Shown here: positions 10,220 through 60,239 of the stretch, one piece after another
How positions within the stretch are numbered: position 1 is the first letter of the stretch
Layout of the letters: every line of letters begins with the position of its first letter
Assembly: GCF_964355755.1 (NCBI RefSeq)
Contig: NC_092676.1
Coordinates: forward strand, 11,261,888-11,325,887
From: Antedon mediterranea
Lineage: Eukaryota > Animalia > Echinodermata
DNA length: 64,000 nucleotides
Reading direction: 5' to 3'
Notes under the pieces: generated by a model
Databases searched by the model: none
Told to the model about the DNA's origin: nothing
The model's input: the letters and a program-made list of their open reading frames with translations, nothing else
Made by a program: the position numbers and the translations under genes

Positions 10220-11992
10220 AAATGGGTCGTAAATCTCTCCAAGTACAAGTTGACAAACTCACAATCGAGCGTGTTAGCAAAAGGCTTAAATTTTGCACCG
10301 TCACCAAGCAAAATACCAGTGGACGACTACATTGTAGCGACCGAATACGCCTGCAGCAAAATCAGAGGCAACAACACAGCTAGTCTCCGGTCACGCATGG
10401 CTAACATTCTCCGTAGTGCTAAAACACCGAAGCCTAACATCACGAAGGAAGAACGCAAAGCTATTTCCTACGGTAGAAAACATCCCTCGTATTTATGCTA
10501 CACCTAAGATACACAAAGAAGGTAAAAAAGTTAGACCTATTGTGGACTATACAGGATCCATAGCATATCAAACCGCTAAAGCCGTTGCTGATATTCTCCC
10601 CCTTAGTAGGAAGCACACAACATCACATAAACAACTCAAAACATTTAGCTCAAGAACTTACGGAAGTCATGATAGAGGAGGATGAAATTTTCAATTCCCA
10701 TGATGTTGTTTCTCTGTTTACCAACATTCCAATAGAAGATTCCCTGACCGTCATAACATCTCGACTACAAGAGGATAATGACCTAAAAACAGAACACTAT
10801 ATAGATGACATCATGGAGTTATTAAAGTTCGTCCTAACTACCACCTATTTTACATTCCGAGGGATTATTTACCAACAAAGATTTGGGGTAGCCATGGGGA
10901 GCCCAGTCTCTCCCATTGTAGCGAACCTGTATTAAGAATTTCTAGAACAGAAAGCTATAGCGTCAGCACCCTTAGAATGTAAACCTCGGTTATGGAAACG
11001 CTACGTGGATGACGTTCTTGAAATTGTTAAACAAGACCAAGTTGAAAATCTCACACAACATCTCAATTCATCTGACCCAGCTGGCACCATAAAGTTCACC
11101 TATGAGAAAGAATATGAAAACAAGATCCCTTTCCTCGATTCTCTCATCATTAGAAAACCAGATGGATCTGTCAAACTTCTAGTATATAGAAAACCGACAC
11201 ATACGGACCAGTACCTACATTTTGATTCCCACCATCCTGTACATCAAAAACTGGAAATAATCAGAACACTATTTGACCGTATGAATTCCATTGTCACTAT
11301 GGATGCAGATCGTAATACAGAGGAGGCCAATATAACATCAGCCCTTTCCTAAGTGACCTAAGTGGTCATTCAACCAAGTAAAGAAAAAAATGAAAGAAAA
11401 TAAAAAAGTAACATCCAAGAAGAAAGAAAACACCATGGAAAGCAAAGGATTTGTCGTCGTCCCTTACGTAGCAGGTCTTTCGGAGCGAGTTAGTAAAGTT
11501 TTTAAGGAGTTTGGCATCAACACAGCTATGAAACCCCACACTTCATTACGCCAACTACTTGTCCACCCAAAAGACCAAGTTGACAAATTGAAAGTGGCTA
11601 ATTGCGTCTACGAAATCTCATGTTCTAATTGTGATCACACCTACATTGGAGAAACGGGTCGTTGTTTTGGCACAAGGTTAAAAGAACATAGAAAAGAAAC
11701 AGAAAAGATAACCCAACAGAGAAAGAACTTCACTCGTCAATCACATAGAGAATCAAAAAATGAACTGAGCAAATCAGCTATAGCAGATCATGCCGTCAAG
11801 TTAAATCACATAATAGACTGGACACAACCTAAAATCATCAACAGGAAACCAGTTACAAACAACCGACACATCAGAGAAGCCATCTGGATCCGCAGACGAG
11901 GAAACCAAATCATCAACAGAGTCGAGGGCACCCACCAACTCAGTCACGTGTACGACCCTGTCATTAAGCCCTCTAGAGGTCAGTCTGTTTGA
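10220..11992 (+). pseudogene. Penelope RT/GIY-YIG ORF with deletions, frameshifts and stops
   Basis: Split over ORFs 10127-10507, 10416-10685, 10585-10935, 11005-11352 and 11390-11992. Confidence 0.9.
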
Positions 11993-13939: not shown

Positions 13940-15060
13940 ATTTGAGCATCACACCTCTGGCACTCATCCCGATGATATGCAAATTAGCTTAAATATGCAA
14001 ATTAGGGTGAAATTACAGGGTTACCATATCTCAAAAAGTACTAGTCCGAGAGAGTTGATTTTTTTCACAGATTTATTCAAAATATTTATATTTACTGTAA
14101 TGAAACATTTTATAAAAAAATGAGTGGAAGTACACCATTTGACCTTCGACCCAATTTCTCAATGTTTGCATACACAATGTGACTAAAGTGTCTGTAGAGA
14201 CTTTATTTTGCCCTCAAATGACCCAGACATAGGTTCCTAATAGCCAGCATAGGACCAATTTATAATTCCCAAAATCACACCTTTGTCACACACCTCGAAA
14301 GTATGCAAATTAGTATTACAATTTAAATAAAATATGCAAATAAGGGGGAAAAATTACAGTTGTCCTATATCTTGAAAACCACTAATGCTAGAGAATTGAT
14401 TCAGAATGTACATATATTTGCTCCAATGAAACATTTTACAAAAAATTGACCGGAAGTATGACATTTGACCCTCGACCCCATTTCTCAATATTGCATAATT
14501 ATATAATGAAACTAAAATGTCTGTTGAGACTTTGTTTTGCCCTCAAATGACTCAGATACAGGTTTCTAATAGCCAACATAGGACTGTTTAGTAAATCTCA
14601 AAATCACGCCTGTATCACTCACCTTCAAAGTATGCAAATTATTAGTACAAGTTACATGAAATATTCAAATTAGGGGGTGAAATTACAGGTTCCTATATAT
14701 CGAAAATTACTATGGCTAGAGAGAAAAAAAACCTTGTTCAGAATGTACATATCTATATTTGCTCTAATGAAACATTTTACGAAAAAATGACTGGAAATAC
14801 AACAATTGACCCTCGACCCCATTTATCAATTTTTGCATACTGTATAAATGCAACTACAATGTCTGTAGAGACTTTGTTTTGGACTCAAATAACTCGGATA
14901 CAGGTTTCCTATAGTCGGCATAGGACCACTTTGTAATTCCCAAAATTACGCCTTCATCATGCACCTTGAAATTATGCAAATTAGTAGTACAAATTACATG
15001 AAATACGCAAATAAGGGGGTGAAATTACAGTCTTCCCATATCTCTAAAACCATTAATGCT
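13940..15060 (+). repeat. Left arm of a foldback-like structure built of ~330-bp tandem units
   Basis: TATGCAAATT recurs at 13976, 14302, 14631 and 14973. 14284-15050 is mirrored by 16088-16276 plus 27931-28421. Confidence 0.75.
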
Positions 15061-15831
15061 GTCTTGGGTAGAATTGTAACTGGTGAACCAGTATCTATGG
15101 TCATGTTCACTTTTGCTGAATGACCTATCAGTACGTCAGTGCGTAATTTTCTGTTAACCATCACATTAACAGACATGACTTCATCAATATTTTCAATTTC
15201 AACACTTCTGCAAACACTAGCAAAATGTCCTATTTTACGACATTTATTGCATTTAGCTTTCTTTGCCTTGCATTTGACATCATTTGCTTTGTGCGATTTT
15301 GAACCACAACGAAAACAGTACTCACTTGATTTGTATTTTGCTGGCTGTTGTTTAGGTTTGTAATTACTCTTTCGTATCTGCTCAACAGGTACTGGTAGTT
15401 CAGCTTTACCTATTATTTGGCATTCTTTTGCAGCATGTTCGCATTGCCTTGCAATTTCTATGGCAGTATTTAATGTAAGTTCAGGTTCCAGAAGTAATCT
15501 TTCGCGAGTACGGGAAGATAGTTTTCGCAACTAACTGGTCTTTTATCATTTCATCGGCTATTACACCGAAATTACATGACATTGATAATTGTCGAAGTTC
15601 TCTTACGTACTCATCTAATGTTTCATCCTGGAGTTGTCTACGTTGACGAAATTTGTATCTTTCTGCTACAACATTCAATCTTGGGTTAAAATGTTCCCGC
15701 AATTTGGCAACAGTTGCATCATACGAATTAACATCATCATCTGGATCAATTTCTCTTTCTGGTAAAGAGCTGTAAATACGTTGACCCTCAGTACCAAGAC
15801 AATGTAGTATAAGTGCTTTTCTTCTTCGATT
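15061..15831 (-). pseudogene. Gypsy gag-protease fragment
   Basis: LHCLGTEGQRIY, ERYKFRQRRQ, zinc knuckles CFRCGSKSH and CNKCRKIGH, protease IDTGS. Frameshifted and truncated. Confidence 0.9.
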
Positions 15832-16082: not shown

Positions 16083-16576
16083 TCTTCCAGATATGAAAGA
16101 CTGTAATTTCACTCCCTAATTTGCATATTTCATGTAACTTGTACTAATATTTTGCATACTGTACTTTTGAGGTTTGTGACAAAGATGTGATTTTGGGAAT
16201 TACAAAACTATGCTGACTATAGGAAAACTGTATCCAAGTCATTTGAGTCCAAAACAAAGTCTTTACAGACATTTTAAGGCCAACTCAGACAGCGTCGTAC
16301 GATGAGGCCCGACGAGACGTCTTGTCTGGACTTGACTCGTCCGTGCTGTCTGAGTTGAATCCAGACGAGACGGGTCGTCGTGAGATAGCGTCGGGGGTAG
16401 TTTTAGGTCGTAGTGAGCATATTAAACATGTTTAATTTTCACCCGACGAGACGACTCGTTTGTTGGGTATTGACCAATCACAGGCGTTTAAATTATGATG
16501 GCAGGTCAAGAGGGGAAAAATTTTTATCGAAGAGCGCGAAGAAGTAATGTGCTTCGCGGGGATTATTTCCATCATC

Positions 16577-16757
16577 ATGGCGGTCAGTGGTGGTGGTGCA
16601 CGTGAAGAAGATTTATGGTCAGAAGAGGCCGAGTCTTGCCTTATTGACCTTTGGAGGAATGAAATGTGTCTATATGACACTACCTCCAAAGAGTATAGCA
16701 ATCGACAGCTTAGGCAAAAAAAAGTAGAAGAATTCGCCGTAATATTAGGAAAAAGTG
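16577..16757 (+). CDS. Harbinger MADF(Myb/SANT-like)-BESS protein, exon 1
   Basis: MAVS..WSEEAESCLIDLWRNEMCLYDTTSKEYSNR. GTAAGT donor, phase 1. Confidence 0.9.
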
Positions 16758-17021
16758 GTAAGTCCAACAAATAATATTAATACTAGCCTAGGCCTAGGCT
16801 AGTACTAGGCTAGGCCTATAATAAGGCCCCTCCTAGGCTAGGCCTAAAATAATAAATATTTACTACTAGGCCTAGCCTAGGCCTAGCCTACTAGGGGCCT
16901 AGGCTAGGCCTAGGTAGATGGATTGTACCAATTAGCGGTTTGTCCCAATTAGGGATAGGCCTAGGCCTAGGCCTATAGGCACAACAGCTATTTTACTAAT
17001 AATAATATAGCCTAGCTAGGC

Positions 17022-18119
17022 GGGTGTCACGAAACCTAAGACCACGAAAGCTAAGACCCCCTAAGACCTAACTAAGATCACGAAAGCTAAGACCCAACAC
17101 TAAGATTACAAATATTTATCTTTCGCACCTGCCTTGTATTTTAACTCCAAACATTTATTCTGAATACCACACCTTAGAATTGGCACTTTCATGAAAAAGA
17201 ATCACATAAAAAGTAACAAATACATTTTTAAATTGATGATTTTACAGATGTTTTTCTCGCACACAAAATGACTAGCCTACAGTACAGGGTGGACCCAGTA
17301 CAGTAGGCCTACCCCATGTTCAATGTTTTTGTATCTATGGAACGTCAAAAGAGCAAACATTATATAGAGGGCTGAAAACTCTGTGGAGTCCATCTACAGT
17401 GTGGATGGAACAATGTAAAATTAAAATTGTAATGATAATAGTATAATCATGCAAGTACGAAGAAATAAATACTGGCAAATAAATTTTAATTTAAAAATCA
17501 TGATAAGTTTTTTTGTTTCGTTTTCTTTCTGTTTTTATACTTGTACTATTATTGTTGCTCTTTTGGCGCTCCATAGAAACAAAAACATTGAGCATGGGGA
17601 GCTCGAGGAGTTACATTGTCATTACAGTATACAAAGAAACACATCTGTAAAATCATCAATTTAAAGGATTTATTTATTTGTTATTATGTGTTTCTCCTTC
17701 TGAAAGTACTTATAAGTCCTAATTTTAAAGTTTGGTGTTCAGGATAAAGTTAGTCAACAAATTTGGAGTCAAAATACAAGAAAGGCAGGTGCGTAAGAAA
17801 AACATCCTCTGAACCAACACAATGGAGTAAATATATACCAACAAACAACCCGTCAAGTTTGTTTGTTGTAAAGAAAAAATATACATTTACTCAACGGGTG
17901 AAAATAATGTGAGTTTATCTATGTTTTGCGGTAGTATTAAATTATATTTATGGTAATAAATTAAACCTACTGTGTTTAAAATTATGTATGGATAAACAAG
18001 TATTGTTTTTAAGCTGTAGTATATCTTAGTATTTGTAATCTTAGGTGTTGGGTCTTAGCTTTCGTGATCTTAGGTCTTAGGGGGTCTTAGCTTTCGTGGT
18101 CTTAGGTTTCGTGACACCC
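17022..18119 (+). mobile_element. MULE-like non-autonomous element, family A, copy 1
   Basis: TIR GGGTGTCACGAAA.. with AAGACC subterminal repeats. Only CTAGCT of the TSD survives. An orphan terminus sits at 18170-18209. Confidence 0.85.
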
Positions 18120-18277
18120 CTAGCTTAATTATTAATTATTGCCAAAAATGAATGACCCACACTCGACTCGGGTGTCACGAAAGCTCAGACCACGAAAGCT
18201 CAGACCCCCTAGCCTACCTAGTAGTAGTAGCATTAATATATAGATAGTAGGCCTAATATTATGGGCTAGTATTAGCC

Positions 18278-20314
18278 GGGTAGTAACAAAGTGCGAGGCA
18301 GGGAAGGCATGCGAGGCAAGTCAGAAATTTATGCGAGGCATCGTTTTACCATCATCAAAAAATGCGAGGCATCATTTTATCATTTCTCAAAATTGCAAGG
18401 CAGGAAATCACCGAAATTGAAGTAGCCTAGGCCTAGGCCCGCTAGGCTAGTTTCCTTTTGCACCTGCCTTGTAATTTAACCAAGGCTTTATCCTGAATAC
18501 CACAGCTTAGAATTAGTAGGCCTACTTTAATGAAGAAAAATCACATAAAAGTAACAATAAATCCATTAAATTGGTGATTTTACAGACGTTGTTTTTCTCG
18601 CATTTCGCACACTCAATGTTCAATATTTTGGTTTCTATGGAACGCCAAAAGAGCAAAATTAATTAGAGGGCTAAAAACTCTGTGGAATCCATTTATATTT
18701 AACGCATTATTTGGTGAAAATCAAGTACAATTTCAATAGATTTTGTCACTGTCAGTAAGGAAAAATGTTACTGTTGATAATGTACACGGTTTCGTTAACC
18801 TTTTAAAGAATAAAATAGAAAAATTCATCATAATATCCTTAGTAGGATGTCCTAGGTCTAGACTAGGTAGTGATGTTGATTTAGGATCGATTATTATTCT
18901 TTGAAAACAGAACAGTATCAGCAGTAACATATTACAACATTTTTATTGACAAATTAACAAATATATTGAAATAAAACGTGTTTTTCACCAATAAATGCAT
19001 GAGAAATTGACGCATTCCACTGAGTTTTAGTCCTCTATTATCGTTGCTCTTTTGGCGCTCCATAGAAAAAAATATTGAACATTGAATAAGTGAAATTCGC
19101 GAACAGTGTGCGAGAAACACGCCTGTAAAATCATTAATTTAAGGATTTATTTGTTACTTTTTATGTGATTCTTTCATTAAAGTACTCATGAGGTATACTT
19201 CTAAGGTGTGGTATTCACACGATAAAGTTAGTTATCAAATTTGGAGTAAAAATACAAGCGAAGGAAACTAGCGCCAGGTTTATTAGTACGTACATGGACA
19301 ACAATAAATAAAAATCGTTCGTAATATACCTAGCTTACTAAAACAGGAATAGTGTATCATTATTAAATATTATACCAACTATTATTTTATCAAAATTGAT
19401 TAAATTATTTTCTACATAGGCCTCTTATCTAGGTTAGGGCTAAGCATATTAGCTAAAGTTTAATTTTAGGCCTAGTATTACAATTGTCGGACGCAAGTCT
19501 TTTTTCACACGCGCTCCAGAATTCTGTCGCAATTTTTTTCTTTGCGGCATGTTATTGGATCGGCATATCAGTTACCTTTTATTCACCGCCAGTTATTGAA
19601 CTTGTCCTGGCAATCGCTGTTCACCTTATTTGCGAGAGAGGTACACGTGTTGTTCCTAGAGAATGGAATGTCAAAAATGTCTTTGGCACGCGCCGCTCAG
19701 AGAGAAGTCTGTGCGTTGCTGCTGGAACCACGTGCTATAGGAGGGGAATGCACCACAATCCTCTGAGCTGAGGGCTGAATCATTCCGCTACCTACTAAAT
19801 AGTAAAGAGGGATTTTCCATCTCTCGGGTCTACCGGATCTAGGCGCAGGGGTGTGACAAAATATTATTTTCACTCTGCTATGTTCGAGAGACATGTGAGT
19901 GAACACGCTCGAAATGCCAACAAACATTGCAGTCATTTGATGAGTGTGTCGCTATAACAATTATTGTTTATCGAAAGTTGAAGACTGTCGTTCAGATTTT
20001 TGAACCGTAGTTTGGGCACTTTTGTAAAAGTAAAATTTGACACGATATGACTTGAATGAAAAAACAATCGTTACATAAAAATAAACAACATGATGAGTGT
20101 ATACACGAATCTATTTAGATACGCTTGTATCGATTGATTATTAGGCCTATAATATAGCATTATTAACAGCACGTTAAGATATGCCTCGCACCTTTTTGAA
20201 ATTGTAAACTATATGCCTCGCACTTTTGGAAATGATAAAATGATGCCTCGCACAAATATTTGGCATGCCTCGCTTGCCTCGCGAGCCTCGCTGCCTCGCA
20301 CTTTGTCAACACTC
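18278..20314 (+). mobile_element. MULE-like non-autonomous element, family B, copy 1
   Basis: Imperfect TIRs GGGTAGTAACAAAGTGCGAGGCAG / GAGTGTTGACAAAGTGCGAGGCAG, TGCGAGGCA repeats, 9-bp TSD GTATTAGCC (18269-18277, 20315-20323). Confidence 0.9.
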
Positions 20315-20325
20315 GTATTAGCCTA

Positions 20326-23284
20326 GAGTGTTGACAAAGTGCGAGGCAGCGAGGCACGCGAGGCATGCCAAATATTTGTGCGAGGCATCATTTTATTATT
20401 TCCAAAAGTGCGAGGCATATAGTTTACAATTTCAAAAAGGTGCGAGGCATAGCTTAACGTGCTATTATGCTATATTATTGGCCTAATAATCAATCGAGGT
20501 GTCACGATAAATATGGTCCGGGGCCAAAATCGGTCCGGCCGGACCAGTTTTGGCTCTAAAATTGTGGCCAAAAGCAGTCCGCCACTGCCAAAATCGGTCC
20601 GGGCTTTTCTTCTGTCGATTTTAATTGAATTACTAGGCCTATGATGCTGTTTTAAATTGTTTATGGCTATAAAAATATCCCATGATATATATTAGTAAGT
20701 TATCTTGTCGGATAAATACTATAAATAAATGTATTTTATCTAAAAACATGACTTAGGTGTTCACTCATATTTCGGCCTGCCACACACTCACATGAACGGG
20801 TATGAGACGCTGATATTGCCAGCTAGATTTGATTTATGATTGAGGTCTTTTTCCTTTTCCTCAGCCTAATCAATATTGGATAATTTTTTTCTAATAATTG
20901 TATTGAATTGATATATTGATTGATTAACCATAAATAATTAATAAATTAAATTGTTTTTAACATCATGGGGAAACGAAGATGTTAAAAAAGAACAAAATGG
21001 ATTAAAAACAGGCAGAGATACATATTGTATACAAAAAGCCTAACAATTAGTACTTATTATTGATGAGTTACTACTAATAATGATAATAAAAAAACAGGCT
21101 TAATTTATAATATTAAAATAACAAATAAAACCCCATAGTTTTCAATATAATGACTAATCATGGCCTTTTTTTTTAATGATATATACATTATGACTCATAT
21201 TGCGCACCATATATTTGTAAGACCGGACCATATTTGGCGGCCAAAAACAGTCCTACTGCCCGGACCAATTTTATCCAGGCCGGACCAGTTTTGGCGGCCA
21301 AAATTGGTCCGGCCGGACAGGTTTTGGCAGCCATAAATGGTCCCCCGGACTGATTTTGGCAGCCAAAACTGGTCCGCCGGACCGATTTTGGCCCGGACTG
21401 ATTTTGGCGTGACAGATACAAGCGTATCTAAATAGATTCGTGTATACACTCATCATGTTGTTTATTTTTATGTAACGATTGTTTTTTCATTCAAGTCATA
21501 TCGTGTCAAATTTTACTTTTACAAAAGTGCCCAAACTACGGTTCAAAAATCTGAACGACAGTCTTCAACTTTGGATAAACAATAATTGTTATAGCGACAC
21601 ACTCATCAAATGACTGCAATGTTTGTTGGTATTTCGAGCGTGTTCACTCACATGTCTCTCGAACATAGCAGAGTGAAAATAATATTTTGTCACACCCCTG
21701 CGCCTAGATCCGGTAGACCCGAGAGATGGAAAATCCCTCTTTACTATTTAGCAGGTAGCGGAATGATTCAGCCCTCAGCTCAGAGGATTGTGGTGCATTC
21801 CCCTCCTATAGCACGTGGTTTCAGCAGCAACGCACAGACTTCTCTCTGAGCGGCGTGCCAAAGACATTTTTGACATTCCATTCTCTAGGAACAACACGTG
21901 TACCTCTCTCGCAAATAAGGTGAACAGCGATTGCCAGGACAAGTTCAATAACTGGCGGTGAATAAAAGGTAACTGATATGCCGATCCAATAACATGCCGC
22001 AAAGAAAAAAAATTGTGACAGAATTCTGGAGCGCGTGTGAAAAAAGACTTACGTCCGACAATTGTAATACTAGGCCTAAAATTAAACTTTAGCTAATACG
22101 CTTAGCCCTAACCTAGATAAGAGGCCTATGTAGAAAATAATTTAATCAATTTTGATATAATAATAATTGGTGTAATATTTAATAATGATACACTATTCCT
22201 GTTTTAGTAAGCTAGGTATATTACGAACGATTTTTATTTATTGTTGTCCATGTACGTACTAATAAACCTGGCGCAAGTTTCCTTCGCTTGTATTTTTACT
22301 CCAAATTTGATAACTAACTTTATCGTGTGAATACCACACCTTAGAAGTATACCTCATGAGTACTTTAATGAAAGAATCACATAAAAAGTAACAAATAAAT
22401 CCTTAAATTAATGATTTTACAGGCGTGTTTCTCGCACACTGTTCGCGAATTTCACTTATTCAATGTTCAATATTTTTGTTTCTATGGAGCGCCAAAAGAG
22501 CAACGATAATAGAGGACTAAAACTCAGTGGAATGCGTCAATTTCTCATGCATTTATTGGTGAAAAACACGTTTCATTTCAATATATTTGTTAATTTGTCA
22601 ATAAAAATGTTGTAATATGTTACTGCTGATACTGTTCTGTTTTCAAAGAATAATAATCGATCCTAAATCAACATCACTACCTAGTCTAGACCTAGGACAT
22701 CCTACTAAGGATATTATGATGAATTTTTCTATTTTATTCTTTAAAAGGTTAACGAAACCATGTACATTATCAACAGTAACATTTTTCCTTACTGACAGTG
22801 ACAAAATCTATTGAAATTGTACTTGATTTTCACCAAATAATGCGTTAAATATAAATGGATTCCACAGAGTTTTTAGCCCTCTAATTAATTTTGCTCTTTT
22901 GGCGTTCCATAGAAACCAAAATATTGAACATTGAGTGTGCGAAATGGGAGAAAAACAACGTCTGTAAAATCACCAATTTAATGGATTTATTGTTACTTTT
23001 ATGTGATTTTTCTTCATTAAAGTAGGCCTACTAATTCTAAGCTGTGGTATTCAGGATAAAGTTGGTTAAAATACAAGGCAGGTGCAAAGGGAAACTAGCC
23101 TAGCGGGCCTAGGCCTAGGCTACTTCAATTTCGGTGATTTCCTGCCTTGCAATTTTGAGAAATGATAAAATGATGCCTCGCATTTTTTGATGATGGTAAA
23201 ACGATGCCTCGCATAAATTTCTGACTTGCCTCGCATGCCTTCCCTGCCTCGCGTGCCTCGCTGCCTCGCAGTTTGTTACTACCC
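20326..23284 (-). mobile_element. Family B, copy 2, inverted, with a nested insertion
   Basis: Near-identical reverse complement of copy 1; 9-bp TSD ATTAGCCTA (20317-20325, 23285-23293). Confidence 0.9.
20498..21414. mobile_element. Unclassified non-autonomous TIR element with GGTCC/GGACC subterminal repeats
   Basis: TGTCACG...CGTGACA ends. Absent from B copy 1, which gives the empty site CAATCGATACA. Confidence 0.8.
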
Positions 23285-23841
23285 ATTAGCCTAGGCCTAG
23301 TTAGTAGGCCCTAAAAGTTCCACAAATAAACTACAGTAGTCTCTACTACTTTGTCTTTACTTACTAGTTCTAGCCTAGAGAGAGGCGCCTAGGCATATTA
23401 TAAATTATCAGCAACATTCACATGAATTCATTCACTTTCATTGGCAAGAAAAATAAATAAGCAAAACTGCGCCTATTATTATATGCCCTATATAGGTAAT
23501 TTAATTATTAATATTTATTATTTGTATCAATATCATATAATCATATACACAGTATATATTCCAAGTAAATTTAAACATTAAATAAACAGTAAAATATGAT
23601 ATAATTTTATTATTAATAATTGTATTTATATTATATACACAGTATACATTCCAAGTAAAGGTAAAATAAATTGTATAAAATATAATGTAATTTAATTATT
23701 AATATTTGTATCAATATCATATATCATATACACAGTATATATTCCAAGTAAATGTAAAATAAATGGTAAAAATGGATTGTGATTATATAGATTATTAATA
23801 TATTATGATTTAATTATATATATATATTTGTATTTTAATAG

Positions 23842-24017
23842 ACATTGAGATCAAAAAACATATAAATTCCCTGAGGACACAATTTATGCGTTACAGAAAG
23901 AGCCTGCCTAGTGGGAGTGCTGCCAGGAAAAGAACAGCTAGGCAGCAATGGGTGCTGGAGCGATGTGACTGGCTTACTCCATACATTAAGCAGAGGGCGT
24001 CTCAGTCCACATTAGAT
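23842..24017 (+). CDS. Harbinger MADF-BESS protein, exon 2
   Basis: DIEIKKHINSLRTQFMRYRKSLPSGSA..QQWVLERCDWLTPYIKQRASQSTLD completes the MADF domain. TAG acceptor, GTAAGT donor, phase 1 to 0. Not in the ORF track. Confidence 0.9.
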
Positions 24018-24151
24018 GTAAGTAATACTATAGCCTAAAGATGGTTGTATAAAGTAGAGTCCTCAATGAGAATACTGTAAAACAAATTGTGAAAATAAAA
24101 GGAAGCATAATAGTTGGAATTTATGTAGCACGTATACAGTATACTGTGTAT

Positions 24152-24952
24152 CTAAATCATTTGGTCTTGCCATTCAATGGATCCTTCTTTTGATGAAAAG
24201 TATGTGGTTAATATTTCTCTCTGTTGCTTGGCAGCAGATGTAAAATTGTTGTGCCTATCAAGTTGAAGAGGCACCATGGATGGTTGCTGTCGCCACTGTC
24301 CTTCAACAACATTGTGCGCCCCATTTTCCAGGTCAACAAAACCTGGTGGATTGTAGGCACTATTGCTTCTTAGCATGTTGTGCAAAGCAGCACATGCCAA
24401 CACTAACGGTTGAAGGTGTTCCGGCAGTATTTTGATCGTCGTCAAGAATACACCAAATCTATTTGCAAAGATCCCAAAAGCATTCTCAGAAACCCTCCTA
24501 GCTCTTGACAGACGATAATTGAATACTCTTTGTTGTTTCGTTAAATGCCTTAGAGGATGTGGCTTCATAATGTCCTCCCGCAATGGGAATGCATCGTCTG
24601 CTACTATCATATATGGAACTGTCGTATTTGTTCCAGGCAATGGACTCGGGGTTGGTACTCCAATTGCTTTGTTCTTAAGGCCCTTATCCAACGAGCATTT
24701 TGAGAACACCCCACCGTCGGATACACGTCCATTCGTACCGAAGTCGACATATAAAAATTTATATGATGAATCTACAAGGGCCATCAGTACCAGGCTGAAT
24801 GAATTTTTGTAATTAAAATATTCCGAGCCTGAATTGGGTGGTGGCCGAATACTGACATGTTTTCCATCTAGTGCACCCAAACAATTGGGGAAATTCCATT
24901 TCATTTGGAACTCTTTTGCTATTCCCATCCATTCTTCAGATGTTGATGGCGT
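24152..24952 (-). CDS. Harbinger transposase, coding exon 3 (DDE domain; spliced total 411 aa)
   Basis: FPNCLGALDGKH, YFNYK, ADDAFPL, FNYRLSRARRVSENAFG, CAALHN. Open reading frame. Confidence 0.95.
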   Translation of the reverse strand, partial: TPSTSEEWMGIAKEFQMKWNFPNCLGALDGKHVSIRPPPNSGSEYFNYKNSFSLVLMALVDSSYKFLYVDFGTNGRVSDGGVFSKCSLDKGLKNKAIGVPTPSPLPGTNTTVPYMIVADDAFPLREDIMKPHPLRHLTKQQRVFNYRLSRARRVSENAFGIFANRFGVFLTTIKILPEHLQPLVLACAALHNMLRSNSAYNPPGFVDLENGAHNVVEGQWRQQPSMVPLQLDRHNNFTSAAKQQREILTTYFSSKEGSIEWQDQMI

Positions 24953-25047
24953 CTGTAAATATGAATATAAAAATATGATAAACTTTCTAATAAAAAATAA
25001 TAATAATACATTATAACTGACTGATCATTGCTTTTTTTTTTTTACAG

Positions 25048-25365
25048 TTGTCAGATTTAGGATTAGAGGCAGATCACGATGATGATGTATCCAACATGAG
25101 CGAAGAAAATAATGTTAAGACAAAAAAAAGTTCAACAAAACCAACAAAAAGAGAGAGAGACAATGAAGAATTGAATTTGATTCGTAATCTTACAACAATA
25201 TTAGAATCTCCTTCAAACGTAAGCGAAGAAACAGATGCCGATTTACTTTTTGGTCAGTATGTTACATTAGAACTTAAACAAATACAAAATAAAAAAACCA
25301 AAGCAGTTCTGATGAACAAAATCCAAAATGATATTTTTGAAGTAAAGATAAAAGATCTAGATTAG
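25048..25365 (+). CDS. Harbinger MADF-BESS protein, exon 3 (spliced total 224 aa)
   Basis: Poly-T-ACAG acceptor, phase 0. C-terminal BESS-like DLLFGQYVTLELKQI..K..L..KIQ..IF. Confidence 0.85.
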   Translation: MSDLGLEADHDDDVSNMSEENNVKTKKSSTKPTKRERDNEELNLIRNLTTILESPSNVSEETDADLLFGQYVTLELKQIQNKKTKAVLMNKIQNDIFEVKIKDLD

Positions 25366-25496
25366 TTTCAAATAATATATATAATATCAAAATGTACTGT
25401 CTAGCCAGTCAAATCCTCACTCATTTTTCCATTTACACTACAGTTTCCTAGTGGATAACAAATTAAATTTATAGCCTAGAGTACACAGTAATTTAC

Positions 25497-25612
25497 CTTC
25501 ATGTATTGTTCTTTCAAAACAGAGTATATTGCATTACATGTGTCTGGTACAATTTCACCAATTGTTGTGGCCCCAACTCTGTATTGAAATGACAGACTTT
25601 TGTATGTTTCAC
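25497..25612 (-). CDS. Harbinger transposase, coding exon 2
   Basis: GETYKSLSFQYRVGATTIGEIVPDTCNAIYSVLKEQYMK (HTH region). CAG acceptor, GTAAAT donor, phase 1 to 0. Confidence 0.92.
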
Positions 25613-25753
25613 CTGAAATTAACAATTTGTTTGACAAATGAATGGTTATTTGCAACTACAGGTGATCAGATTGTTAGTATACTTGAAAAACCTGAGAAAG
25701 GATAAGGGATAGAATAAATTTGGGTTTTTGATGATTTGAACATGTTTACTCAC

Positions 25754-26072
25754 CAGTTGCAATAAAACGAAGCGTAATCGCTAATCTATCTCCTGGAGAA
25801 ATACTCTGGCGCCAGTTGGTGTTTTGCTTCTTTATAATGGGCTTGACCAAACTCAGGAGGTTGTCGAATGTGCCAGTATCCATCCTTAAAAAATTTCTGT
25901 AGGATTCCTGGTCCTGGAGCCGCAGTTCTTGAATCAAATTTCCATATGCTCCTTGTTGCTGTCTTTTGAGGATCCAGGGCTTACACCATATTCTGCTGCT
26001 TCGTCTTCGCCGCCTTCTTTTTAAAAGCAACAGCAGTAAAGCAGCACATGATTTGCGTTTAATTGACACCAT
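25754..26072 (-). CDS. Harbinger transposase, coding exon 1
   Basis: WCKPWI..YRNFLRMD..FDNLL..ISPGDRLAITLRFIATG. GTGAGT donor, phase 1. Confidence 0.92.
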
Positions 26073-26247
26073 GATGTAAATACTGTATATTTAAAACAAC
26101 ATTTTTAAGAAATTTCATTATTCAGTAAATCTAGGAATTCAGAAAACATATCTCAGTAATTCAATAATTGTTGCTGCCATCAATTTATATTATTTAAAGA
26201 TATGTATTGATTTTGTCTCATAAAAACATTATATAACATTAAGTTAA

Positions 26248-26801
26248 AGATGTATTGTCCCTTGAAACACAAAAAATGAAGGTCAAAATATACCGTAAAT
26301 TTTAATTGGCCATATCAAAGTAATATTGAAGTTATTCACTTCAAGTCAAAAATTCAAGCCAAAAACAACAATTTTACGTAATTAACAGCTAAATTAATTT
26401 TATTACATTTCGTCTGGAAAATAGTCGTGAGCGAAAGTAAACAAAGATTTCAAACCATGAGTATGCATTATGCATGATGCTAATCAGGATTGTTTACAAC
26501 TTGTCACGGTTGAGAAGGTGTTTTCACACAGATCGCGAGGAAGTTTTATGATTACGGCATATATACAGAGTAGCCAAACAAGCGCATTGCATTATAAGAT
26601 ATGTTTTGATCGAAAACTTTGACTGGAAGTCAAAGTTATTTTTTTAACCAAAAAACGTCTGTATTTCAGTTAAATGATTTTTTTTTCGACTAATTTTTGG
26701 TGAAAGTTAATAACTATTATGATAGTTCAAAATTACCCACTTTTTTTTCGAAATCTTTTAATTTTTATTTTTTTGGAATTTGACAAAGGGGCAATACATC
26801 T
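26248..26801. mobile_element. Kolobok-like MITE upstream of the transposase ATG
   Basis: TTAA|AGATGTATTGTCCCTT ... AAGGGGCAATACATCT|TTAA. Confidence 0.75.
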
Positions 26802-27930
26802 TTAATTAAATGGTTACATTTTGTTTCATCAATATAATATGTTGTGATTTAATATGTAATAACAAATACATGTAGTAAATAAATAAAAGTGTAATATAAT
26901 TATGTTTAATTTAAATAATTTAGTTATTTGTTTGTTATTTGTATCACTAGTTAATGAGTTGAGTTTTAGGCTAACATGTCCAAAAAGTTGGTATGGCGCA
27001 TTGCCACAGTGTGTTAATTTAATGTAAGGTATGGAGACGAAATGGAACCACTTACTTTTTGTACATAATTTGTTAATATTAATAATAAAAAAAACAATTT
27101 AAAAAAAGTTATATCTATCTGGTCATTACCTCTCAACAATGCTTATCAATCGGACATTTTAAATGATATATATGAACACAATTTTGTATTGAATTGTGTT
27201 CAATATTATAAATTTAACTTGAATTGTATAGGTACTCTAAATAAATAAATGCCTAATTTAGGCCTACATAAAAATTCCAAGGTTATGTATTGGCCTAGTA
27301 ATTAAAAATGAAATCAATTGAACCGATCGACATGTGACTCTACCCTGTATCATATTAGACTTCCTATTCTGTATGTACTACTATGCCTAGATAAAGTATT
27401 TGGGTCTAGCCTAAGTTTCTACTAACTACCTAACCTAGGCCTTGGGCCCTAGCCTAAGTGACCACATATTTAGATACTAGGCCTAGGCTAGGCCTAAACT
27501 AATATGCCTACTAAAAGGCCTGGCTAGGGGCATACATGGGCCTACCAACTCTGTACTGACATGGATCCCATATGCCTAGTCTCAATCATTCAACAAAATA
27601 TAAGCTTAAATTTTGTTGTTATTTTTATTAGGTAAAACAAACGGATTTATCGGTTTATTAATTATCAATTAAACTTACTATTACTTCCGTGTTTACAAAT
27701 CATACGAACGTACGTACGTAGTGCGTACGCGTTGCATGGTTTGTTGCGTCATCTTGAATTCAACCAATCAGAAGCGCAGGCAATATAGTCGCGTCGGGGT
27801 TGTCGGGCTGTCTGAGTTGAGCCGTCGCGGAGCGTCGTGGCACGATTATCTGTCGGTAGGACTTTGGAAAGACGGGTCCAGACAAGACGTCTCGTCGGGC
27901 CTCGTCGTACGACGCTGTCTGAGTTGGCCT

Positions 27931-28421
27931 TTATTCGCATTATGTATGCAAACATTGATAAATGGGGTCGAAGGTCAATTGTTGTATTTCCGTAAAATGT
28001 TTTCGTAAAATGTTTCATTAGAGCAAATATAAGTATGTACATTCTGAACAACTTTTTGAAAAAATCAATTCTCTAGCCTTAGCAGTTTTCGATATATATG
28101 AACCTGTAATTTCACCCCCTAATTTGCATATTTCATGTAACTTGTACTAATAATTTAAATACTTTGAGGGTAAATCAAAGTCTCTACAGACATTTTAGTT
28201 TCATTATATATGAAATATTGAGAAATTGGATCGAGGGTCAAATGTCATACTTCCGGTAAATTTTTTGTAAAATGTTTCATTGGAGCAAATAGAAATATGT
28301 ACATTTCTGAATCAACTCTCTAGCATTAGTGTTTTTCGATATAGGACAACTGTAATTTTTCCCCCTTATTTGCATATTTTATTTAAATTGTACTACTAAT
28401 TTGCATACTTTCGAGATGTGA
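27931..28421 (-). repeat. Right arm of the foldback-like structure (continues 16088-16276)
   Basis: Reverse complement of ~14284-14860. Confidence 0.75.
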
Positions 28422-47811: not shown

Positions 47812-48893
47812 GGGTGTCACGAAAGCTCAGACCACGAAAGCTCAGACCCCCTAAGACCTAAGATCACGAAAGCTAAGACCCAACACCTAAGATTACAAAT
47901 ACTAAGATATACTACAGCTTAAAAACAATACTTGTTTATCCATACATAATTTTAAACACAGTAGGTTTCATTTATTACCATAAATATAATTTAATACTAC
48001 CGCAAAACATAGATAAACTCACATTATTTTCGCCCGTTGAGTAAATGTATATTTTTTCTTTACAACAAACAAACTTGACGGGTTGTTTGTTGGTATATAT
48101 TTACTCCATTGTGTTGCTTCAGAGGATGTTTTTCTTACGCACCTGCCTTTCTTGTATTTTGACTCCAAATTTGTTGATTAACTTTATCCTGAACACCACA
48201 CTTTAAAATTAGGACTTATAAGTACTTTCAGAAGGAGAAACACATAATAACAAATAAATAAATCCTTTAAATTGATGATTTTACAGATGTGTTTCTTTGT
48301 ATACTGTAATGACAATGTAACTCCTCGAGCTCCCCATGCTCAATGTTTTTGTTTCTATGGAGCGCCAAAAGAGCAACAATAATAGTACAAGTATAAAAAC
48401 AGAAAGAAAACGAAACAAAAAAACTTATCATGATTTTTAAATTAAAATTTATTTGCCAGTATTTATTTCTTCGTACTTGCATGATTATACTATTATCATT
48501 TTAATTTTACATTGTTCCATCCACACTGTAGAGATGGACTCCACAGAGTTTTCAGCCCTCTATATAATTTTTGCTCTTTTGACGTTCCATAGAAACAAAA
48601 ACATTGAACATGGCCCATGGGGTAGGCCTACTGTACTGTAGGCTAGTCATGTTGTGTGCTAGAAAAACGTCTGTAAAATCATCAATTTAAAAATGTATTT
48701 GTTACTTTTTATGTGATTCTTTTTCATGAAAGTGCCAATTCTAAGGTGTGGTATTCAGAATAAATGTTGGGAGTTAAAAATACAAGGCAGGTGCGAAAGA
48801 TAAATATTTGTAATCTTAGGTGTTGGGTCTTAGCTTTCGTGATCTTAGGTCTTAGGGGTCTGAGCTTTCGTGGTCTGAGCTTTCGTGACACCC
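47812..48893 (-). mobile_element. Family A, copy 2 (opposite orientation)
   Basis: Same TIRs; 10-bp TSD ACACACTGTC. Confidence 0.92.
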
Positions 48894-56542: not shown

Positions 56543-57584
56543 GTGGTCCAATTGGTTTTTCAACCGGGCAACTGGTTGTTTCAATTGGTTTTGCAACTAG
56601 TTTTTTTCCTAACAACCAAAGGAATTCGGAGAAGAGCGAAAGCGGATGGCTGGGTGTACGTCGTGGGAGTACGGGAGAGGACCCAGGGGAGAGGTGGGGG
56701 GGGGGGTGTTCTGGATTGAGGTGACGGGAATAGAAGCATGGTCCGTAAATTACCATTCAAAATATAATTAATATTATTATTTGTAATCCTATATTATTGC
56801 AACAAACAATTATTTAAATTAAATCAAATAAAATCGAGTAAAGAATAAGAAATACTCCACAACTTTTTGAAAATAATGGAGCATGCGTCGTATAGGCCGG
56901 CAGACTGTAAACAACCAATCAGAAAACTGCAAGCCAACGGCCGGCCAAAAACGGCTCCCTTTGTTTTTGTGTCAGTGTAGCTCGGCGGCAAAATCGGCGA
57001 TCACGCAGCACAGAGATGCCAGGTCTAGAATAGGTATTATTGGCTAATCGCATCAAATTAAGGATGAGGCACAAATCTTGCTGTTTTATAAAAGGTAGGC
57101 CTGACATATATGTCTATTATTATCTCTTATTACTATAGGTATTGGCCTACTAACTATGATCAAAGATCGACAACAAAATGGAGGCCTCGCCGCTCGCTGC
57201 TGGCTAGCCTAGCCTAGGCATATGCCACCTAGTAAGCTAGGCGCTTCAGCCTTGGCTTGCCCTACACCCTGCTAGCTGATTGATTACATGGCTGTGTACG
57301 ACCGCAAATTGTGTTATTGGCCTCTACATAGTACTAGCCTATAGTAGGCTAGAAACAAAGCCCAACAATACTATATTATTAACCTATTATTAGCCTACAT
57401 GTCATTACCACACAAACGAGATTTATTTCCATTCATTCATGATCACTTTTGTTATTTTGGCCTACTAGGCTAGGCCTCTAGTAGTTGTAGGCCCAAACTA
57501 GCTACAGTAGTACTACTGTCTCCCTGTTCTGCATGTTGTATTATCACTACTCTAGCTAGTGTCGTGATGACATGCATGGATGGC

Positions 57585-58664
57585 GGGTGTCACGAAACCT
57601 AAGACCACGAAAGCTCAGACCCCCTAAGACCTAAGATCACGAAAGCTAAGACCCAACACCTAAGATTACAAATATTTATCTTTCGCACCTGCCTTGTATT
57701 TTAACTCCCAACATTTATTCTGAATACCACACCTTAGAATTGGCACTTTCATGAAAAAGAATCACATAAAAAGTAACAAATACATTTTTAAATTGATGAT
57801 TTTACAGACGTTTTTCTCGCACACAAAATGACTAGCCTACAGTACAGTAGGCCTACCCCATGGGCCATGTTCAATGTTTTTGTTTCTATGGAACATCAAA
57901 AGAGCAAAAATTATATAGAGGGCTGAAAACTCTGTGGAGTCCATCTACAGTGTGGATGGAACAATGTAAAATTAAAATGGTAATGATAATAGTATAATCA
58001 TGCAAGTACGAAGAAATAAATACTGGCAAATAAATTTTAATTTAAAAATCATGATAAGTTTTTTTGTTTCGTTTTCTTTCTGTTTTTATACTTGTACTAT
58101 TATTGTTGCTCTTTTGGCGCTCCATAGAAACAAAAACATTGAGCATGGGGAGCTCGAGGAGTTACATTACAGTATACAAAGAAACACATCTGTAAAATCA
58201 TCAATTTAAAGGATTTATTTATTTGTTATTATGTGTTTCTCCTTCTGAAAGTACTTATAAGTCCTAATTTTAAAGTGCGGTGTTCAGGATAAAGTTAGTC
58301 AACAAATTTGGAGTCAAAATACAAGAAAGGCAGGTGCGTAAGAAAAACATCCCCTGAACCAACACAATGGAGTAAATATATACCAACAAACAACCCGTCA
58401 AGTTTGTTTGTTGTAAAGAAAAAATATACATTTACTCAACGGGCGAAAATAATGTGAGTTTATCTATGTTTTGCGGTAGTATTAAATTATATTTATGGTA
58501 ATAAATGAAACCTACTGTGTTTAAAATTATGTATGGATAAACAAGAATTGTTTTTAAGCTGTAGTATATCTTAGTATTTGTAATCTTAGGTGTTGGGTCT
58601 TAGCTTTCGTGATCTTAGGTCTTATGGGGTCTGAGCTTTCGTGGTCTTAGGTTTCGTGACACCC
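57585..58664 (+). mobile_element. Family A, copy 3
   Basis: Same TIRs; 10-bp TSD CATGGATGGC. Confidence 0.92.
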
Positions 58665-60239
58665 CATGGATGGCTGCTATTTTAACATATCCTAAGCCTA
58701 GGCTAGCCTACTATTACTAGGCTAGGCCTACTAATCTAATAATAAAGCAAACTAATCCATGCTGTTTTAGTCTGTCTCCGTTTCCTTAAACTAAATATCC
58801 TACATTTTTTAATTTTCCTTCAATTTTTTTCATACACAATTGCAGGTGATTTCCAGTTTACTTGAATACAACCAACATTACAAGGCTATAAACCAAACAA
58901 GTACAGCAGTACAATTTGAAGGGTAAATATATTTATGTATACTTTCTTTCTTGGAATGATCCAAGAAAATAGTTATTTATATGGCCTTTGGCCCAAATAA
59001 TATACAATGTAACAATTCAATCAATAACATTAGAGTGCGTTTAAGAATTCTGTTCTACATTAAAATGAAAAAAATATATATATTTTCCAAGCTTAGTAAT
59101 GAGATATTCGTAGTAGACATAAGATAAATATATTTTAATTTAGAGGGGTTATTTGTATAAAATGAAAATATATTTAGTTCTAATATCTGAATAAAAGGGA
59201 CAAACAAACTAATGTGAAATGATACTCATCTTCAATTGCTTGTAGAGAACATAATTTGCATAATCATTCTTTCATTTCTATTAATATATGATTCCATCTT
59301 CATTTTTTAGTAACAGTATATACATTGAGATTTGAATTTGATTTATTCTTTGTACTACCAGTATATTGTTTATTTAATCAATTTGTTTTGGTTTTTCTCT
59401 TTCAGGACTAATTTTGTCAACATGACTAAATAAAGAAGGTGGCCATAACTTCATAAATATATTACTGAATAAATGCTAGATCTCCATTTTCATGGACCTG
59501 TAAAAAGGAAACGGCAGGGACATGCTGACATTTGTGTAGATGTAAGGGGTTATGCACGTTGTTAAGACCTTTGTGGGGTAATTAACTACAGTACTGCAGA
59601 ATTGAAAGTAACTACTGTAATTGTAAATATTAAAGTTAATAAAATAAACAGTTAAACAATAAGTTCTGTAGTTTGTGTAATTTGTTTTTGTACTGAAATT
59701 TACCAGTTGGGAAAATTCTCAACTGGGAAAATTTACAACTGGGATTGATCAGACCAGTTGGAAAATTCACAACTGGGATTGATCAGACCAGTTGAGAAAT
59801 TTACAACTGGTAAAATTTACAACTGGGATTATCAGACCAGTTGGAAAATTCACAACTGGGAAATTTCCCAGTTGGGAATTTCCCAACTGGTATTCAACTG
59901 GAATTTTTACCTGGGTACATAACCGAAATTAACGGCGTCTCAATAGAACTTGGCCTAATAACATTAAATCTGTATGAGTTATTGATCAATAAATGTAGCG
60001 GAATGCAGCTTACCGAAAATAGCAAAGTCACCCGCTATCTGCAGTACATAAACAATTCAGGTAAATATAAAAAACAAACAATATATGTCAATATCCTATA
60101 ATTAAAGTCACTAGCTGTGATCATACATCCTCTCCTCTCTAATGCAAGATACCTCTCCTCACATGGTCCTAAAATGACGTCATTTTCTTAATAATGCGCC
60201 CTCTCTAAATATAAACTAGTTTGGGACCAAACAGTGTTA

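Follow-up and report, generated by a model that had tools for sequence, protein, structure and literature searches.

The locus described here raises the question of whether two partner genes of one DNA transposon can be threaded through each other on opposite strands, each holding an exon of the other in an intron, and whether such a layout is an accident of one copy or an inherited design. It lies in a 64,000-nucleotide stretch of the genome of the echinoderm Antedon mediterranea (contig NC_092676.1, positions 11,261,888 to 11,325,887 of the forward strand), hereafter the window, from whose first letter all positions are counted. The stretch contains a Harbinger element with a plus-strand MADF gene and a minus-strand transposase gene. 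We consider it probable that this is an intact two-gene PIF/Harbinger whose genes are interleaved on opposite strands, in an old layout which a portion of the animal Harbingers have inherited and which is not peculiar to this copy.

The gene models of the earlier note held in full, in exon coordinates, canonical phase-matched splice sites and open frames (Table 1). Three exons of the MADF gene join into a frame of 224 amino acids and three coding exons of the transposase gene into one of 411 amino acids, all introns being GT..AG with matched phases. The exon encoding the DDE domain lies entirely within MADF intron 2, with 134 and 95 bp of that intron on its two sides; reciprocally, the last MADF exon lies entirely within the second coding intron of the transposase and ends 131 bp from the N-terminal exons of that gene. 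The start of the transposase stop codon and the end of the MADF stop codon are 1,214 bp apart, which agrees with the earlier claim that the convergent pre-mRNAs overlap by at least 1.2 kb while the coding exons do not overlap at all.

The region is present in five sequencing runs, none of which is recorded as RNA; one of them (X1) was guessed to be RNA, a guess supported by its two splice joints. X1 contigs are joined at the exact predicted bases of both interlocking introns, 24017->25048 (GT..AG) and 24952->25497 (CT..AC). These are two of the junctions that had been proposed as a check of the interleaving, and neither (0/2) is found in the control run X4, whose contigs pass the exon borders unspliced. 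Both interlocking introns are spliced in one likely RNA run, and since that run contains either spliced product their mutual exclusion is not absolute at the level of the sample. Contigs give no strand, start or end, and they show presence, not absence; for this reason the lack of a 25612^25754 joint among the X1 joints listed was not used as evidence, and neither was the lack of X1 cover at 24960–25039. A third X1 joint (24086–24188, TT..TC) was set aside, being non-canonical and also present in X3.

Does the nested plus-strand frame belong to the MADF gene? Translation continued past the exon 2 donor meets a stop at 24038, short of the transposase stop, and the nested exon matches no Pfam family (0 at E<=1), as would be expected if read-through closed the MADF gene a few codons beyond exon 2 and the intronic frame had nothing to do with it. 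This explanation is contradicted by the X1 joint 24017->25048. Moreover, the C-terminal motif of the nested exon occurs in one chain with MADF/Myb domains in proteins P0027 and P0003 (above the Pfam cut-off) and P0006 (weakly), and in four related loci with side-by-side genes (L006, L007, L010 and L035) it is found on the opposite (MADF) strand downstream of the transposase. We regard read-through as very improbable. The possibility of a chance open reading frame was ruled out by the same joint, by homologues (29 for this exon at E<=0.001) and by shuffling: the 114-amino-acid plus-strand stop-free frame in the 544-bp transposase intron was equalled in 1 of 2,000 base shuffles. The label MADF-BESS given in the earlier note stands in its first half, by matches to PF10545, and has to be softened in its second, the last exon being, by sequence comparison, BESS-like only. 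A BESS match was obtained for 1 of the 29 homologues (P0017), below the Pfam cut-off. The top ESM Atlas cluster is BESS-named (0.93, with 187/256 features shared), PF02944 being present in 32% of its members, and a PDB sequence search using an alignment of the C-terminal motif gave 0 matches.

The complete element measures 11,654 bp (16277–27930) and so extends beyond the coding interval 16577–26072. It displays (i) a 3-bp target duplication of the TWA type, (ii) terminal inverted repeats (TIRs) shorter than 60 bp whose first base is A or G, (iii) a DDE_Tnp_4 transposase with an intact catalytic triad (D174, D264 and E301, in conserved columns), (iv) a second gene with a MADF domain and (v) scattered copies of the element ends, 60–68 contigs per run departing from the reference at 27933 into unrelated flanks (X2–X4, which are one sample). 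The same target duplication, the same kind of TIR and the pairing of a DDE_Tnp_4 transposase with a Myb/SANT/MADF protein are described for two-gene PIF/Harbingers of the PHIS superfamily in the accessible text of Han et al. (2015; PMC4482050), where the mean length is ~4.1 kb compared with ~5 kb here without nested insertions. The excess over ~5 kb consists of a 1.1-kb element resembling a MITE (a transposable element of the miniature inverted-repeat class), a 5.0-kb foldback and a high-copy repeat near 26244–26800. The best named homologue is from the crinoid Anneissia japonica (86% identity), which would point to an echinoderm-like host. By all features testable in sequence the element is a PIF/Harbinger and, as a two-gene element, structurally intact. 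A domesticated Harbinger gene pair was ruled out as both TIRs and target-site duplication are still present, and ISL2EU (a 2-bp AT duplication and a YqaJ exonuclease partner) by the TTA duplication and the MADF partner.

Table 1. Features of the interleaved Harbinger element and its nested insertions (positions in the window)
Feature	Position	Strand	Details
Left target-site duplication TTA	16274..16276	+	identical 3 bases at 27931-27933
Left TIR, 55 bp	16277..16331	+	54/55 bases match right TIR; first base A
MADF coding exon 1, encoding the first half of the domain	16577..16757	+	PF10545 positions 1-37, E 1.4e-06, 29 bits (cut-off 22)
MADF intron 1, 7.1 kb, enlarged by nested insertions	16758..23841	+	GT..AG; predicted
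MITE-like element, 1.1 kb, nested in MADF intron 1	17019..18120	.	
Foldback, 5.0 kb, nested in MADF intron 1; a ~2-kb element present twice in inverted orientation	18278..23284	.	
MADF exon 2, second half of MADF domain	23842..24017	+	PF10545 positions 44-84, E 0.0079; donor used in X1
MADF intron 2, 1,030 bp, phase 0, holds the entire antisense DDE exon	24018..25047	+	GT..AG
MADF last exon, encoding an acidic/basic linker and, at the C-terminus, a BESS-like helix motif	25048..25365	+	
Transposase last exon, complete DDE domain	24952..24152	-	PF13359, E 3.2e-27, 95.5 bits (cut-off 24.8)
Transposase intron following residue 145, 544 bp, phase 0, holds the antisense last MADF exon	25496..24953	-	
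Transposase coding exon 2	25612..25497	-	donor used in X1
Transposase coding intron 1, 141 bp	25753..25613	-	GT..AG, phase-matched; predicted
Transposase coding exon 1	26072..25754	-	aligns with full-length homologues
High-copy repeat inserted upstream of transposase start, approximate ends	26244..26800	.	summed depth ~thousandfold over flanks, 4/4 runs
Right TIR	27876..27930	-	
Right target-site duplication TTA	27931..27933	+	

The layout is not confined to the Antedon element. Related loci were taken from metagenome contigs (5 loci), from contigs of prokaryote genome bins (13 loci) and, as further loci, from 10 of those genomes; because of their introns and homologues they are likely eukaryotic host DNA. 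The scored set comprises the 28 loci in which the junction corresponding to residues 145/146 of the transposase is readable, L028 and L032 (99.8% identical) being counted separately. Outside it are repeat fetches of the same contigs (L019–L021, L023, L024, L027, L029, L030, L033, L040, L045, L046, L048 and L050–L057), the same-family copies L004 and L005, and L003, L014, L031, L034, L043 and L047, where the junction was unscored or interrupted. The interleaved layout was found in 3 of the 28: L002 (and its copies L004 and L005), L018 and L044, with mean DDE identities to the Antedon element of 40.5%, 43.8% and 39.9%, respectively. In all three, a phase-0 transposase intron at the same codon encloses an antisense MADF C-terminal exon, and MADF domain exons lie antisense just past the transposase stop, the MADF donor being 86, 4 and 165 bp beyond it (134 bp here). 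Among viral contigs, relatives were found in 0/11 and 0/43 pattern matches.

Two side observations concern these loci. Transposase matches occur in ten prokaryote genome bins (G001–G010; loci L006–L057), many with spliceosomal-type introns, and number 19 in G003 and 20 in G002, likely as host contamination. The interlocking in L018 (890–910, 1766–1775) is minimal: 8 bp separate the predicted MADF acceptor from that of the transposase, the MADF intron is barely longer than the DDE exon, and the purine-rich letters with which the last MADF exon begins serve, read from the opposite strand, as the pyrimidine tract for the transposase acceptor.

Several points weigh against an old, inherited and spliced interleaving. 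All three interleaved relatives show decay: in L002 the donor is GC and no acceptor is clear, in L018 a stop codon directly precedes the donor, and in L044 a frameshift interrupts the C-terminal motif, which was recognised by eye but missed by the hidden Markov model (HMM). No intron is present at the junction in 23 of the 28 loci (for several, as judged from HMM coordinates), and in two more (L017 and L036) the intron is present without a nested exon, so that the design belongs to a minority of the sample. On the supporting side, 74/90 unannotated database homologue frames begin at the DDE exon border; this count, which an exon-only query favours, shows a widespread intron and does not show nesting. 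The MADF profiles were thin (a search with P0027 gave 2 proteins among 339 candidates) and missed some partners, and in many loci MADF is unlocated. As to splicing, X1 was guessed to be RNA, each joint is represented by one contig with 30 letters on its short side, and X1 contigs also cover non-exonic stretches. Finally, the interleaved elements form no resolved clade: they fall in an open polytomy in one tree and, in another, three stand apart on weak branches.

When the four interleaved elements were constrained to group together, the tree exceeded the quick free tree by 5.99 log-likelihood units and was not rejected (approximately unbiased test, p-AU 0.63); a single origin is neither shown nor rejected by the trees. 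Inheritance from one event would need an ancestor with tail-to-tail genes that already had both introns. L036 is in the state that this model requires, since both introns are present with the genes side by side; its MADF gene is complete, is likewise interrupted by an intron after the domain and lies tail to tail beside the transposase. From such an ancestor, a swap in the order of two adjacent exons (the DDE exon and the last MADF exon) would produce the interleaved form, and a single swap suffices because both introns sit at domain borders. This probably occurred once, possibly through tandem duplication and reciprocal loss, and the layout would then persist because it is hard to undo and cheap to carry. 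Several independent origins, the two conserved domain-border introns easing exon-order swaps, would account for the lack of a supported clade in either free tree, for the three changes counted on the quick tree and for the grouping of L002 with two intron-bearing, non-nested elements (SH-aLRT, an approximate likelihood ratio test, 92). However, the constrained tree outscored the quick free tree, and exon order and splice positions are identical in all four elements; we therefore hold repeated origin to be unlikely.

How such an element may operate can be outlined by analogy. Both Harbinger proteins are required, the Myb-like protein binding the element ends and the transposase and aiding nuclear import, according to the accessible text of PMC9179366. 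The MADF protein would likewise bind the ends and the transposase and carry the enzyme into the nucleus. Each gene would start close to its own end of the element and be read inward; the word CCAATCA is present at 16474 and at 27764. A 5' non-coding transposase exon may lie near the right TIR, as suggested on the minus strand by a possible acceptor (26083) closely upstream of the ATG of this gene and by a match to the donor consensus at 27678; a 26083–27678 joint is absent among the run joints listed. Each spliceosome would excise the exon of the partner as part of an intron. The layout has two predicted side effects: 3' ends that overlap in antisense, and a MADF C-terminal exon that is tightly linked to its own transposase.

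Polyadenylation signals bear on the first of these. The minus strand has no AATAAA or ATTAAA from the transposase stop (24152) to 23834, where the first signal lies, past MADF exon 2; on the plus strand, ATTAAA first occurs at 25462 and AATAAA at 25713, the latter past transposase exon 2. Judging from these hexamers, the mature mRNAs may overlap via their 3' untranslated regions (UTRs). Selection could keep the layout as a self-limiting switch, in which the predicted transposase 3' UTR, antisense to MADF exon 2, and the predicted MADF 3' UTR, antisense to transposase exon 2, let the two mRNAs pair, or in which polymerases collide, transposition being capped either way. The hexamer positions and the maintenance of the layout across ~60% protein divergence favour such a switch, and X1 contigs unbroken over 24054–24217, 25160–25526 and 25526–25675 are compatible with it without proving it. 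On the other hand, the contigs carry neither strand nor ends, the coverage of X1 is not confined to exons, both spliced forms coexist in that run, and 25 of the 28 scored relatives transpose or transposed without the layout. Selection for a switch appears to us rather unlikely.

The second side effect concerns linkage. The genes had been thought to be locked together against deletion, and this fails on geometry because a single deletion within the intron of the partner removes either nested exon and leaves the other gene whole; one-gene Harbinger derivatives are known (accessible texts of 10.1101/2021.06.13.448261 and PMC13668399). What the exon geometry does prevent is that either gene is exchanged cleanly and as a whole through one crossover. 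The layout might then be kept to stop partner swapping, the MADF C-terminal exon, likely the transposase-docking part, sitting inside its own transposase gene, where a single crossover between related families cannot part the two. Congruent evolution of both proteins with rare recombination, reported in the accessible text of PMC9179366, fits this explanation, but side-by-side elements co-evolve too according to the same text. A complex prediction for transposase residues 20–106 with last-exon residues 35–105, made without alignments, gave no answer either way (score 0.00). That the last exon binds the transposase is reportedly a result of Sinzelle 2008, and for the Antedon element such binding is presumed. 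We consider retention against partner swapping quite unlikely. Similarly, there is a low probability that the element represents an ancient, previously undescribed Harbinger lineage retaining a functional interlock that would combine both effects, a 3' UTR antisense brake and a transposase-docking-helix exon held within its own transposase gene.

Has the layout been described before? Harbinger3_DR of zebrafish and DPLT1-4 of Drosophila are animal two-gene Harbingers with spliced genes, and some DPLT elements may have nested or overlapping genes. Because of this possibility, we place the chance of a prior description somewhere a little below even. Interleaving is not described in the literature searched, which was text only, with Repbase, Dfam, Kapitonov and Jurka 2004, Casola 2007 and Sinzelle 2008 outside it. 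Where layouts are given in the accessible parts of PMC9710019, PMC9179366, PMC4482050, PMC9392472, PMC13668399 and a sea-krait preprint, the genes are side by side or head to head, and a word search of the main text and three supplements of PMC4482050 found no exon layout. The insect pairs DPLG7-DPM7, APLG1-APM1 and APLG2-APM2 (Markova et al. 2022, PMC9710019) resemble the Antedon genes in combining a transposase and a MADF partner, both intron-bearing, but they are adjacent genes, 97 and 179 bp apart, domesticated and without TIRs; the accessible text does not mention an overlapping, nested, interleaved or opposite arrangement for them. Also comparable are the Turmoil2-type Harbingers of Caenorhabditis (PMC13668399, accessible text), with DDE and MADF genes oppositely oriented within TIRs and a TTA duplication. 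Harbinger-1_CSav of Ciona savignyi is listed with a 269-amino-acid DDE frame and a 115-amino-acid BESS frame (PMC4482050, Table S1, as far as accessible), sizes like those of the two nested frames, and may have the same design unrecognised. The earlier note held that novelty would be lost if the layout were common: it does recur in other families (3/28 loci), and it was not found in print.

The insertions nested in the element were also analysed. Two more copies of the MITE-like element lie in the window (47812–48893 and 57582–58665), with ~96% identity among the three and flanking duplications of ~10 bp at two of them. The arms of the foldback (1,842 bp, 98.8% identical) are flanked by a 7-bp duplication which recurs in the 11-bp spacer between the copies, pointing to a short-range hop that used this target word again; the foldback would place a long hairpin in the MADF pre-mRNA. 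Inside it, a 0.9-kb insertion (20498–21415) has a terminal word in common with the 1.1-kb MITE-like element. The Harbinger itself sits within an array of ~330–340-bp repeats (14005–15072, 16085–16276 and 27931–28420). Elsewhere in the window, long frames resemble retroelement remnants (53666–50595, 38368–37391, 15530–14997 and 1317–2 on the minus strand, 11357–11989 on the plus strand), which we take, from the look of their translations only, to be BEL/Pao-like, gag-like, LINE-like and Penelope-like.

Mutual interleaving of the exons of two obligate partner genes within one mobile element is unusual, and the matching splice positions recur in four families that are ~60% diverged. The layout also has a consequence for annotation: where genes are called as single frames, the MADF protein is truncated behind its DNA-binding domain and the transposase ahead of its catalytic exon, so that elements of this kind can be wrongly taken for one-gene or broken ones. 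For the biology of the family, interleaved elements and their side-by-side relatives, some of which share both introns, offer a natural comparison that would bear on whether a DNA transposon limits itself by convergent transcription.

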